Of a DNA stretch of 6,003 nt, positions 2,630 to 5,998 are shown in pieces. The stretch lies in the IMG/VR virus record IMGVR_UViG_2541047173_000020; one strand, written 5' to 3'. The notes beneath the pieces are model-generated. The model was not told where the DNA came from, made no database searches, and worked only from the letters and a program-made list of their open reading frames with translations. Numbering within the stretch: position 1 is the first letter of the stretch; each line of letters opens with the position of its first letter. Position numbers and translations under genes: made by a program. This DNA comes from a virus. Its lineage: Duplodnaviria > Heunggongvirae > Uroviricota > Caudoviricetes.

Positions 2630-2846
2630 GGCTACCTCATCTGGTGCCGAACCTTCCTCCGGATATAATCTGTGGTTCCCAATCGACAGAACCAGAGGAG
2701 GTTCGACATGTATTTTTTGAAAAGCCTTTATCAGGCTCATGTATTAAATGTTGCAGCAACAAACCGCTGGTGTAACAGCCCCGAAATGCTCCCGGATTAC
2801 AGAGCCTGGCTGCGCGCCGAAACATACCTTCGTCTCGACATATTGA

Positions 2847-3356
2847 TTAGCGAACTTCAAAAAGAGACTGCATCCATTCATAACCTTCAGGGTATCGACG
2901 CTGTTCGCATTCTGGTATCGCGCCATAGTGCTCTCTCAATAATTGAAGTGCGTCATCTCTCTTTTTCTGAACTGATTTTCTTGCTTCAACCAGCTCTGGA
3001 ATCAGCGAATATCCCGCCGGAAGTGATCCAATACCCACCTCATGTTGACGAGCAGTTACAAGATGTGCCATACAACCAGCGTGCTGGATTGACTCCCTGC
3101 TCAGAGGCTGAATGGGATCACTCTCTGCTGAAGAAATACCAAGATTTGTATAATCCTCAATAAGCCCGGCACACGCTTCTGCATCAGCCAGCTTTATTCT
3201 GGTTTCCTTGCGCTGTTCTCTGGCTGACAAACGCCAGAGCAGCGCATTAGCTTTATGTATCAACCACTCTGCCAGCTCCACATCAGATAAACCGCCACGC
3301 CAGATGTGCGGACTGTTTTCGTAAACGCTCAGTGTCAATTTTTTGTCATTACTCAT
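2847..3356 (-). CDS. Hypothetical protein, 169 aa, function unknown (extra gene between the CII-like gene and the replication initiator)
   Basis: ATG at 3354-3356 (MSNDKKLTLSVYENSPHIW...) lies 13 nt after the ydaT-like stop (3370-3372), same strand, so likely co-transcribed; the track ORF (2847..3407, 186 aa) begins further upstream inside ydaT. By hand count, first-codon-position G is about 34% here against about 26% for the overlapping plus-strand ORF, favouring this strand. SD is weak. No family recognised. Confidence 0.6.
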   Translation of the reverse strand: MSNDKKLTLSVYENSPHIWRGGLSDVELAEWLIHKANALLWRLSAREQRKETRIKLADAEACAGLIEDYTNLGISSAESDPIQPLSRESIQHAGCMAHLVTARQHEVGIGSLPAGYSLIPELVEARKSVQKKRDDALQLLREHYGAIPECEQRRYPEGYEWMQSLFEVR

Positions 3357-3369
3357 ATTTATTACCCAA

Positions 3370-3795
3370 TTAATGCACAGCCAGAGTGTTTCCTGCCGGG
3401 CCACCACGATTCATCTGATCGAACAGAACGATCGCTGATGCAACGAAATCATCAATATCTTTCACCAGCCGTTCCTTCGTCTCTACCAACTCCCGAAAAT
3501 AAGCGGAACTGTGGCTGCGCATTCGGGCCACCAGCGGAGGCGGCATCGCTTTTTCGATCGCTGGTAACAACGCCTGAATTTTTTTAACCGCATCAGGAGT
3601 GTCTTTCTCCACCCAGCGGAAAATTTTCTGAGTATTGCGAGCCATGGCTTCCGGATGGCTGTCGTCATACAGTTCCGGGAACGTCATTCCCAGCTCGAAA
3701 TACGCTTTGGTAATTTTCGCAGCCGGTACTTTTTCGCCGTCCGGATGCGCCCAGACATTCATCGCCATGCGGATGTGTTCATGCTTGATTTTCAT
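3370..3795 (-). CDS. ydaT: YdaT-like protein (proposed CII functional analog of Rac/CP-933P-type prophages), 141 aa
   Basis: Start MKIKHEHI... matches my recollection of the YdaT family N-terminus; sits directly downstream of the Cro-like gene with an ATGA start/stop overlap (ATG 3793-3795, TGA 3792-3794). GGAG lies 7 nt upstream. Family call is from memory, not a search. Confidence 0.75.
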   Translation of the reverse strand: MKIKHEHIRMAMNVWAHPDGEKVPAAKITKAYFELGMTFPELYDDSHPEAMARNTQKIFRWVEKDTPDAVKKIQALLPAIEKAMPPPLVARMRSHSSAYFRELVETKERLVKDIDDFVASAIVLFDQMNRGGPAGNTLAVH

Positions 3796-4122: not shown

Positions 4123-4152
4123 AGTTTAGTGTTTAATAAACCATTAAGTCAA
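4123..4152 (-). promoter_or_regulatory. Putative pR-like promoter for the ydaS operon (TTGACT, 18-nt spacer, TAAACT) overlapping operator motifs
   Basis: On the minus strand the -35 TTGACT is plus 4147-4152 and the -10 TAAACT is plus 4123-4128. The perfect palindrome GTTTA-A-TAAAC (4131-4141) lies in the spacer. TTTAGTG motifs occur at 4106-4112 and 4125-4131. Inferred from consensus only. Confidence 0.4.
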
Positions 4153-4156
4153 GTAT

Positions 4157-4185
4157 TTGCTTGTTTAGTGATTACTAAAGATAAT
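4157..4185 (+). promoter_or_regulatory. Putative pRM-like promoter for paaR2 (TTGCTT, 17-nt spacer, GATAAT), predicted to give a leaderless or near-leaderless mRNA
   Basis: -35 TTGCTT at 4157-4162 and -10 GATAAT at 4180-4185; the ATG of the regulator is at 4192 with no SD upstream. The spacer contains the inverted repeat TTTAGT-gatt-ACTAAA (4164-4179). Confidence 0.45.
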
Positions 4186-4191
4186 TACCAC

Positions 4192-4563
4192 ATGCAAAAA
4201 AAAGAAATTCGCCGTTTACGTCTCAAGGAGTGGTTTAAAGATAAAACTCTGCCACCCAAAGAGAAGAGCTACCTATCTCAACTAATGAGTGGGAGAGCCT
4301 CGTTTGGAGAAAAGGCTGCCAGAAGAATAGAGCAAACATACGGGATGCCGGAAGGGTATCTGGATGCGGAATACGCAGAACAACCGGGGGGTTCTCCACC
4401 ACATGCAGGGTTAACGTCTAATCAACTGGAATTATTGCAGATTTTTTCAGCCTTCCCTGAGGATGAGCAACGCCAGATAATCAGCGAGTTAAAGCAGAAA
4501 AAAGAATCAATGGAAGATCTCATAGCGAGATGGATTGCGGCGCAAAAATGCCGCCGCGCCTGA
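4192..4563 (+). CDS. paaR2: CI-type HTH transcriptional regulator, PaaR2-like (first gene of the three-component TA operon; putative prophage repressor analog), 123 aa
   Basis: MQKKEIRRLRLKEWFKDKTLPPKEKSYLSQLMSGRASFGEKAARRIEQTYGMPEGYLD resembles a phage CI-repressor-type HTH domain with no S24 peptidase domain. Divergent from the cro-like gene and followed by antitoxin and ParE toxin genes. The track start at 4129 is a GTG inside the operator region and is judged unlikely. Confidence 0.8.
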   Translation: MQKKEIRRLRLKEWFKDKTLPPKEKSYLSQLMSGRASFGEKAARRIEQTYGMPEGYLDAEYAEQPGGSPPHAGLTSNQLELLQIFSAFPEDEQRQIISELKQKKESMEDLIARWIAAQKCRRA

Positions 4564-4583
4564 GTTATAAAACCGGAGGAAAC

Positions 4584-4775
4584 ATGAATAGAGCCCTTTC
4601 ACCAATGGTTTCTGAATTTGAAACCATTGAACAAGAAAACAGTTACAACGAATGGCTGCGTGCGAAAGTAGCAACGAGCCTTGCAGATCCGCGCCCAGCA
4701 ATTCCCCATGACGAAGTTGAGCGCAGAATGGCAGAACGCTTTGCTAAGATGCGCAAGGAACGGAGCAAGCAGTAA
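4584..4775 (+). CDS. paaA2: Antitoxin of a ParE-family toxin, PaaA2-like, 63 aa
   Basis: GGAGGA SD at 4575-4580, ATG at 4584; 63-aa charged product (MNRALSPMVSEFETIEQENSYNEWLRAKV...) directly upstream of and almost abutting the ParE-like gene (stop TAA 4773-4775, next ATG 4777). Size and gene order match the PaaA2 antitoxin as I recall it. Confidence 0.85.
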   Translation: MNRALSPMVSEFETIEQENSYNEWLRAKVATSLADPRPAIPHDEVERRMAERFAKMRKERSKQ

Positions 4776-4776
4776 A

Positions 4777-5055
4777 ATGTTACCCGTGTTATGGCTTGAA
4801 AGCGCAGATACCGACCTAGATGATATAACTAGTTATATTGCTCGTTTCGACATAGATGCGGCTGAACGCTTATGGCAGCGATTAAGGGGTTGTGTGCTGC
4901 CGTTATCCGAACATCCGTATTTATACCCACCAAGCGACAGAGTACCTGGCTTGCGTGAGATTGTAGCCCACCCTAACTATATAATTCTATACCGCGTAAC
5001 AACATCAAGCGTTGAAGTAGTAAACGTGATCCACGCAAGACGCCAGTTTCCCTAA
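4777..5055 (+). CDS. parE2: ParE/RelE-superfamily toxin, ParE2-like, 92 aa
   Basis: Product MLPVLWLESADTDLDDITSYIARF...REIVAHPNYIILYRVTTSSVEVVNVIHARRQFP has the size and layout of ParE toxins; starts 1 nt after the antitoxin stop. Confidence 0.85.
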   Translation: MLPVLWLESADTDLDDITSYIARFDIDAAERLWQRLRGCVLPLSEHPYLYPPSDRVPGLREIVAHPNYIILYRVTTSSVEVVNVIHARRQFP

Positions 5056-5779: not shown

Positions 5780-5998
5780 ATGCAGAAACGAGACCCCGTC
5801 ATCATCGCGCCAGACTATACCGATGATGAACTTTATGAGTGGATGCACCAGAAAATTAAGGCGGTGCAGGACCTGAAATGGGCCAATGAAGCCAGGGCTA
5901 AGCAGGCTGAAAATCTGTCCGCTCTGGAGCAGGATATCACCAATCTGGAAAAAGCAGCGGCATTAAGCATTGCCAGAATGATTACATACCCACGTTAA
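5780..5998 (+). CDS. Hypothetical small phage protein, 72 aa (early-left operon candidate)
   Basis: AAGGAG SD at 5770-5775, 4 nt before the ATG at 5780; complete ORF with TAA at 5996-5998. Product MQKRDPVIIAPDYTDDELYEWMHQKIKAVQDLKWANEARAKQAENLSALEQDI... is predicted helical or coiled-coil-like. No family recognised. Confidence 0.7.
   Translation: MQKRDPVIIAPDYTDDELYEWMHQKIKAVQDLKWANEARAKQAENLSALEQDITNLEKAAALSIARMITYPR

Follow-up and report, generated by a model that had tools for sequence, protein, structure and literature searches.

Two long open reading frames (ORFs) face each other on opposite strands between the YdaT/CII-like gene and the replication gene of a lambdoid prophage of Escherichia coli O157:H7, and the question raised by this locus is which of them is a gene, or whether both are. 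The stretch analyzed here (IMG/VR record IMGVR_UViG_2541047173_000020; 6,003 nucleotides, hereafter the window, to which all coordinates refer) carries one of these ORFs on the plus strand (the plus gene) and the other, partly antisense to it, on the minus strand (the minus gene). Reference annotations are in conflict about the strand: Sakai and the Prokaryotic Genome Annotation Pipeline (PGAP) have the plus ORF, and EDL933 has the minus ORF. An initial annotation of the window preferred the minus ORF and considered the plus ORF a possible shadow with unusually good signals. Our analysis suggests that both ORFs are genuine protein genes and that neither is a shadow of the other. We consider it probable that positions 2641-3356 form a mobile prophage cassette of ~720 nt, composed of two convergent genes with a 317-nt overlap of their 3′ ends and with both frames under protein-level selection (Table 1). 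Comparison shows that the overlap and its frame relation are conserved across Enterobacterales prophages.

The plus ORF is called as a coding sequence (CDS) by PGAP/RefSeq under the name "ECs1072 family phage-associated protein", which is used in many genomes. Membership in the corresponding NCBIfam family, NF033230, is defined by a whole-protein hidden Markov model (HMM) score of at least the curated cutoff of 70 bits; the plus ORF scored 105.7 bits (E 2.1e-30), with residues 4-145 aligned to positions 3-141 of the 142-position model. Its first 46 codons (2708-2846), which lie outside the overlap, evolve as coding sequence, with divergence of ~0.33/0.23/0.58 at codon positions 1/2/3 and a ratio of nonsynonymous to synonymous differences per site (pN/pS) of 0.13-0.49, pS being saturated. 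The AlphaFold2 model of the plus protein, built from only 8 sequences, reached a predicted local distance difference test score (pLDDT) of 89.4 and a predicted template modeling score (pTM) of 0.86, and the protein is predicted to be all-helical. In addition, the plus ORF was intact in every divergent lineage recovered, including lineages without the minus gene.

These observations bear on the view that the minus ORF is the only gene here, as in the EDL933 annotation, and that the plus ORF is a shadow whose signals are good by chance. Codon-position composition, counted by hand in the initial annotation, had favored the minus ORF, its family profile matches it over the full length, and the plus ORF carries nonsense mutations in two E. 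coli alleles. Against this stand the curated family match of the plus protein, the coding pattern of its codons outside the minus ORF, its persistence where the minus gene is absent and its confident model from so few sequences, together with a reciprocal resampling test (z 5.5) and an expression block conserved across genera, both described below. A plus ORF that is only a shadow is therefore extremely improbable, and the suspicion voiced in the initial annotation is not upheld.

The evidence for the minus gene is of a similar kind. Membership in phrog_8304 (PHROGs) is defined by a significant full-length match to the family profile, and the minus ORF matched it with E 4.2e-120, residues 1-169 on positions 1-169 of 169; remote homologs from Klebsiella and Salmonella also matched (E ~6e-21). 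The initial annotation had given its coordinates correctly but its length as 170 aa, which is 169 aa plus the stop codon. In EDL933 the ORF is annotated as "unknown protein encoded by cryptic prophage CP-933M". A minus-family profile searched against 1.84 billion representative proteins retrieved 22 clusters at 50% identity. Outside the overlap (codons 1-64, 3356-3165), divergence at codon positions 1/2/3 was ~0.37/0.25/0.55 and pN/pS was 0.08-0.45 (0.14 and 0.08 in two closely related pairs). The protein has a conserved N-terminal motif, SPHIWxGGL..LAxWLxxKANAIL, a long helix (residues 25-72) and a poorly predicted C-terminal part, and two further motifs, YxxLGxSxxxSDPIxPLSxEAI and PxGYSxLPDLxEE, are encoded inside the overlap. 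The protein searches and structure prediction proposed in the initial annotation thus gave family matches for both products but a confident fold for the plus protein only (pLDDT 89 vs 55).

Current RefSeq/PGAP annotation corresponds to a different view, in which the plus ORF is the sole gene and the minus ORF is a long antisense shadow taken up by some gene callers. PGAP annotates just the plus ORF here, lineages with only the plus gene exist, the minus ORF is frameshifted in two lineages, and a large survey by Moshensky and Alexeevski reported a general lack of negative selection on long antiparallel ORFs (10.1101/724807). However, a shadow of the plus gene would not explain why the first 64 codons of the minus ORF, which lie beyond the plus gene, evolve as coding sequence, why the minus protein forms a family of 22 clusters, or why the ORF is intact in all 19 E. 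coli alleles; resampling and BLOSUM tests (see below) also support selection on it. We regard this view as very unlikely, and the claim of the initial annotation that the minus ORF is a real gene is supported by both its family match and the coding pattern of its first 64 codons.

Both ORFs were found open by protein searches in homologs at ~50% identity. About 20 lineages, from Escherichia, Salmonella, Klebsiella/Raoultella, Enterobacter, Serratia and Izhakiella, retain the two ORFs in the same frame relation, with overlaps of 257-389 nt. A first contig scan for relatives found none, and a metagenome scan found near-identical E. coli copies only; a scan of viral contigs with the minus-family alignment identified 20 remote loci with 34-45% identity to the minus protein of the window. 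An opposite-strand plus-family ORF was present in all 20 (E 1e-26 to 1e-67), and the 19 whose minus ORF was intact had overlaps of 257-323 nt in an identical frame relation. Exact-sequence look-ups placed the remote loci in several species of Klebsiella and in Raoultella, Enterobacter ludwigii, Serratia, Izhakiella and Salmonella, where the plus protein is named ECs1072 family and the minus protein hypothetical. Among the divergent loci (designated by L numbers), the minus ORF was full length in L033/L056, L038, L053/L054/L060, L057 and L059, as in the window, and ~20 codons shorter in L039/L061. Near-identical E. coli copies comprised 19 distinct alleles, all with an intact minus ORF and 17 with an intact plus ORF.

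Within the overlap, codon positions 1, 2 and 3 of the plus gene face positions 1, 3 and 2 of the minus gene, so that any synonymous third-position change in one gene hits a second position of the other. The substitution profile over codon positions was flat in this segment. The initial annotation had proposed examination of suppressed synonymous-site variation, and such suppression was observed: plus-frame pS in the overlap was 0.49 (0.30-0.62; 42 deep pairs) as compared with 0.80 in the plus-only flank, and it was 0.78 (0.70-0.87; 20 pairs) when one partner lacked the minus gene. The ranges of the two sets of pairs are disjoint. Suppression of synonymous change in the plus gene was restricted to lineages that also have the minus gene.

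Conservation of each frame beyond that imposed by the other was assessed by redrawing the synonymous codons of one gene and scoring identity in the other frame. When plus codons were resampled, minus-frame identity was 0.34 against a null of 0.17 (mean z 4.9) and exceeded all 300 resamples in 94% of 133 deep pairs; the controls gave z 0.5 in the flank and z 0.1 in pairs with a plus-only partner. When minus codons were resampled, plus-frame identity was 0.39 against 0.17 (z 5.5), with z 1.05 in the minus-only flank as control. Conservation of each frame is therefore roughly double what the other protein by itself would account for (z ~5). In addition, mismatches in the minus frame were more conservative than expected (BLOSUM62 -0.82 vs -1.27 in the null, z 2.8), a signal confined to the overlap and to pairs in which both lineages carry both genes, which favors protein-level rather than RNA-level constraint.

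Closely related sequences and stop codons provided further information. Five independent close pairs contained 109 changes synonymous in the plus frame only, 80 synonymous in the minus frame only and 105 altering both proteins; changes altering both were depleted (0.36 vs 0.45 expected, z ~-3), and constraint on the plus gene was clear (z ~3.8). The relevant antisense frame, of ~104 codons, contained no stop in 7 of the 9 lineages counted, one in L039 and three in L043, the one plus-only lineage in the count. For comparison, antisense stops in the non-overlapped part numbered 0-4 (mean ~1.8) per 46 codons, and the other two antisense frames had 3-11 stops. The minus frame remained open in only 0.1-0.8% of synonymous reshuffles of the plus gene of the window, but p-values from such shuffling were modest in some lineages (up to 0.36 in L038). 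Because the plus amino-acid sequence itself already disfavors antisense stops, we gave more weight to the resampling and control-lineage tests. A shadow ORF shows no conservation or stop avoidance beyond that of the sense gene, and neither ORF fits this description. With a non-trivial overlap and selection on both frames within it, the two genes appear to form an antisense coding pair.

Several observations speak against this reading. In the close pairs, the overlap shows weak and marginal selection on the minus frame: 80 of the 185 plus-altering changes were synonymous in the minus frame, as compared with 69.5 expected (one-sided p ~0.06). The AlphaFold2 model of the minus protein is poor (pLDDT 55), and its C-terminus is variable, with protein lengths of 148-192 aa among homologs. 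Frameshifts interrupt the minus ORF in L041/L042, by a 1-nt loss in an A-run (CGTAAAAACC, L041 3495-3505), and in L037, by a 1-nt loss at ~3568 (98%-identical L059 is intact). The plus gene occurs without the minus gene in L043/L044 and L058, and the gene pair is thus not obligatory. Premature stops interrupt the plus ORF in L091/L032, at codon 34, and in L092, at codon 98. Individual decaying prophages lose, and tolerate the loss of, either gene. L041/L042, in which the cassette stands behind a cI-like repressor gene, are also the sole exception to the genomic context described below. Finally, no intrinsic terminator was found on the plus strand in 3163-3370; the nearest terminator-like site is a weak hairpin (3533-3550) inside ydaT. 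Homologs with one ORF interrupted and the other conserved had been named in the initial annotation as an outcome that would argue against two overlapping genes. They do occur, in both directions and in decaying prophages, whereas the family-wide statistics show selection on both frames.

The weak constraint on the minus frame in close pairs is the main support for the most serious alternative, in which the two ORFs both yield proteins but function in the minus protein is limited to its N-terminal portion (3356-3164), the last 105 residues being a tolerated read-through tail and the extra conservation of the overlap arising from RNA-level constraint, such as sense/antisense pairing or mRNA structure. 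The poor model of the overlap-encoded part and its variable length are consistent with such a tail, as is the arrangement in SfIV, where a plus-like gene faces an 84-codon (stop-to-stop) ORF that resembles the N-terminal domain only and overlaps it by ~25 nt. However, the two motifs encoded in the overlap persist at 30-38% identity over the 22 clusters, non-identical minus positions are conservative (z 2.8), which RNA-level constraint does not predict, and stops are avoided in this antisense frame specifically and only in minus-carrying lineages. We consider the tail unlikely, and two overlapping protein-coding frames remain the preferred reading.

The two genes differ in their expression signals. 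For the plus gene, the initial annotation had reported an ORF of 151 codons with a TATAAT hexamer and a strong Shine-Dalgarno (SD) sequence 6 nt before the ATG, all of which are present as described. Approximately 70 nt upstream of this ATG are conserved across genera and between unrelated flanks. The conserved block consists of (T/C)TGGTG, a spacer of 17-18 nt and TAnnnT, followed by ...GAACC..AGGAGGTTCGACATG; the SD region, AGGAGGTTCGACATG, is nearly invariant in all lineages. The promoter-like architecture lies 36-46 nt from the ATG in the E. coli, Salmonella, Klebsiella, Enterobacter and Izhakiella copies, in varied genomic contexts. Hence, the remark that these signals were too good for a shadow proved justified. 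A consensus promoter scan did not call the element because its -35 is weak. For the minus gene, no conserved promoter of its own was found; only its SD is conserved, and nothing further upstream.

The same block (TGGTGCCGAAC...AGGAGGTTCGACATG) was also found in the two plus-only prophages, at L043 3480-3556 and L058 1520-1595, where it precedes unrelated genes (a 151-aa ORF in L043 and a 77-aa ORF in L058) sitting at the place of the minus gene. Reused before unrelated genes, it behaves as a portable expression module. We also considered whether GAGGAGG could be an antisense by-product of "EPPL" codons of the replication gene; this was ruled out, as that part of the 400-aa replication ORF is non-coding and GAGGAGG is conserved where no replication gene adjoins.

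The -10 element lies between the arms of an inverted repeat that also includes the SD. The corresponding RNA would fold with -26.3 kcal/mol (z -2.7) in the window, and similar folds were detected in L038, L039 and L037 but not in L041 or L043. It would mask the SD only in transcripts that start upstream. A role as a demonstrated SD-sequestering, riboswitch-like element was rejected, since the fold is not present in all lineages and transcription likely starts inside the repeat. Early-operon mRNA would contain this hairpin as well, just ahead of the replication gene. Rfam searches of the window with E up to 1 gave no match except a chance microRNA hit.

Analysis of genomic context showed that the minus gene is almost always immediately preceded, on its own strand, by a gene of the early lytic operon, i.e., a cro-like, YdaT/CII-like or cox gene, and that the plus gene opposes the early lytic operon. 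In the window, L033 and L115 the minus gene follows a YdaT/CII-like gene with a gap of 14-32 nt; in the window itself, the stop of this gene lies 14 nt upstream of the minus-gene ATG on the same strand. In Klebsiella-type loci the minus gene follows genes for small Cro-like helix-turn-helix proteins (gap 26-83 nt), and in Salmonella loci it is inside cox operons. In six Klebsiella-type loci (L097, L100, L109, L111, L114 and L061), the cassette was observed between the Cro-like gene and a CII-like gene (phrog_101, 182-185 aa), a position equal to that of nutR/tR1 in lambda.

From these arrangements we infer a promoter for the plus gene, a timing of expression and antisense interference. In the repressed prophage, only the plus gene would be transcribed, from its own putative promoter. 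After induction, pR-type transcription of the early operon would read through the cassette, yield the minus protein and run on into the replication genes, and it would silence the plus gene through polymerase collision and antisense RNA. The overlap would in this way enforce mutually exclusive expression, in the lysogen or in lytic growth, as well as co-inheritance of the two proteins, which probably act on a common process in the transition between lysogeny and lytic growth. A more elaborate version, in which the cassette serves temperate enterobacterial phages as a mobile "state switch" of ancient origin that is coding on both strands, is possible but doubtful. In this version, the plus protein would be made only in the lysogen via the portable promoter and the minus protein only after induction, the ~100-codon overlap would serve as a regulatory device that makes the two states exclusive and the pair genetically inseparable, and the proteins would be antagonistic; for example, the plus protein may protect the lysogen or act in exclusion and be neutralized by the minus protein during the lytic phase.

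Both proteins are soluble and mostly acidic. The plus protein is acidic in almost all lineages that have the overlap (isoelectric point, pI, 4.9-6.4), the exception being L041 (pI 7.8), in which the minus ORF is frameshifted; in L043 and L058, both without the minus gene, it is basic (pI ~9). Pfam and NCBIfam gave no match indicating a function for either protein, and searches of PADLOC (E up to 1), PDB sequence profiles and BFVD (Foldseek, E up to 0.001) returned no match; no structural relatives of the plus protein were detected. The locus does not resemble a known defence or toxin-antitoxin system, given the lack of PADLOC and Pfam matches and genes that are convergent rather than co-directional. 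The 90%-identity cluster of the minus protein includes entries named "Rha family transcriptional regulator, partial" and "YdaT, partial". These are YdaT N-terminal fragments, and their membership is an artefact of clustering or naming that implies no relationship.

The N-terminal motif of the minus protein, in the form PH[IV][WY]AGGL..EEL..W[LI], recurs in neighboring small genes (L060 1557-1910 and L053r 3055-3507) and in an ORF of L116 (Shigella phage SfIV) at 2910-3161 on the minus strand. The product of a window ORF at 5780-5998 (PVIIAPDYTDDELYEWM) resembles it as well. The SfIV ORF is unannotated (HMM E 1.3e-3) and is convergent to gp36, the distant plus-like gene, with the ~25-nt overlap mentioned above. 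These occurrences hint at an ancestral arrangement that lacked the long overlap. Searches of sequenced phages by megablast, by tblastn with the plus protein of the window and by tblastn with a remote Klebsiella minus-family protein gave no match; only a distant plus-like gene, of the phrog_5286 type, was found, in SfIV-like phages.

With regard to distribution, an 851-nt query had 100% identity to many O157:H7 chromosomes, and at least 80% of it was present in 455 of 5426 complete E. coli genomes. Carriage of the cassette was 455-512 E. coli genomes, as compared with 2962 that match some part of the query; most of the listed records among the latter match the ydaT 3′ end only. It is well established that lambda and Rac have no gene between cII/ydaT and the replication gene, as the initial annotation stated, and these counts fit that background. 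Its proposal of an accessory element inserted between the CII-like (YdaT) and replication genes was borne out.

The minus strand of the window carries the early-right operon, in the order Cro/YdaS-like gene, YdaT/CII-like gene, the disputed stretch, replication initiator and DnaC-like loader. The replication gene had been drawn as a 400-aa ORF starting at 2740. This start is an artefact, 37 codons too long: phrog_1701 aligns from residue 38, and both PGAP and the PHROG models start at M38, which puts the start at a distance of 12 nt from the plus gene's -35-like hexamer. The extension over 2630-2740 on the minus strand is an antisense shadow of the conserved start region of the plus gene, the reading of which in antisense accounts for the over-extended ORF. 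The cI-like repressor gene (4129-4563) is followed directly by a RelB/RelE-type toxin-antitoxin pair (4530-5055, plus strand), which takes the place that rexAB has in lambda.

Table 1. Coordinates of the cassette elements and of adjacent genes in the window.
Feature	Position	Strand	Remarks
Plus gene, ECs1072-family phage-associated protein	2708-3163	plus	151 aa; ATG 2708, TAA 3161-3163
Minus gene, phrog_8304 family	3356-2847	minus	169 aa; ATG 3356, stop 2849-2847
Putative doubly coding segment	2847-3163	both	317 nt, ~105 codons per gene; 3′ ends antisense
Promoter-like element of plus gene	2641-2669	plus	-35-like CTGGTG 2641-2646, 17-nt spacer, TATAAT 2664-2669
Shine-Dalgarno GAGGAGG of plus gene	2695-2701	plus	6 nt before ATG
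Inverted repeat CGAACCTTCCTC / GAGGAGGTTCG	2648-2659 / 2695-2705	plus	brackets -10, contains SD
Cro/YdaS-like gene	4094-3792	minus	
YdaT/CII-like gene	3795-3370	minus	Pfam PF06254 and phrog_163
Replication gene (O/DnaD-like)	1538-2629	minus	phrog_1701/3729; PGAP start 2629

In prokaryotes, long antisense overlaps of two real protein genes are commonly considered to be rare or to reflect mistaken annotation (PMC2478687, 10.1101/724807). The cassette stands out because long antiparallel ORFs generally lacked negative selection in the large survey cited above; it appears to be an unusually well-supported case of one DNA stretch coding for two proteins on opposite strands. A previous report listed ECs1072 among genes significantly changed in a microarray study of uninduced Sakai (PMC2241611). 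The literature on ECs1072 and neighboring locus tags yielded this one microarray table entry and nothing on the overlap; the main text of the Zehentner preprint does not mention ECs10xx tags, and no prior description of the plus/minus pair was found in the searchable literature. The locus has consequences for annotation: hundreds of O157:H7 genomes in RefSeq lack an annotated minus gene, and the EDL933 annotation omitted the plus gene. For phage biology, it represents a widespread uncharacterized cassette in the region of the lysis-lysogeny decision, with cro/cII on one side and the replication genes on the other. It also lends itself to clean tests of codon sharing between two proteins and of a regulatory role of overlap.

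Comparison with known systems helps place the cassette. In lambda, the pO promoter between cII and O gives rise to oop, a non-coding RNA of 77 nt that has a terminator of its own. The cassette likewise has a putative promoter between a CII-type gene and the replication gene, directed against pR, and its transcript would be antisense to the early-right operon. Unlike oop, the opposing transcript would encode a conserved 151-aa protein, the opposed region is a second protein gene and no terminator was found in the cassette; an opposing unit that is a conserved 151-aa CDS sets it apart from oop-type antisense RNAs. Morons are prophage accessory genes that are autonomous, each having a promoter and a terminator of its own. 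The cassette is similar to a moron in being inserted relative to related prophages, in carrying its own portable promoter-like block and in occurring in varied contexts, but it differs in that no intrinsic terminator follows the plus gene, whose 3′ end is shared with a gene of the flanking operon. In the excludon of Listeria, a long antisense transcript represses one gene and serves as the mRNA of its neighbor. The logic proposed for the cassette is similar, as transcription of one partner would produce antisense RNA to the other and expression would be mutually exclusive; the antisense stretches of excludons are untranslated, whereas that of the cassette appears, from its sequence, to be coding on both strands.

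Antisense overlapping pairs reported in bacteria include nog1/citC, laoB, ano, asa and pop in E. coli O157:H7 and olg1/olg2 in Pseudomonas aeruginosa (PMC5960689, PMC6294744, PMC8850804, PMC9927249). The cassette resembles the nog1/citC type in having two putative coding frames on opposite strands, of which standard pipelines keep one. However, cases of that type are mostly young ORFs of narrow range, embedded in an older gene and found by expression data, with modest evolutionary support, and for most of the bacterial examples published so far, the main evidence is the expression of such young, narrowly distributed ORFs. The cassette offers the opposite kind of evidence, i.e., deep comparative support for both frames, natural negative controls in the form of plus-only lineages and non-overlapped flanks, and a frame relation fixed across genera. 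Its partners, supported here by comparative evidence, are conserved at the family level over several genera, and each has a part of its own outside a convergent, 3′-to-3′ overlap.

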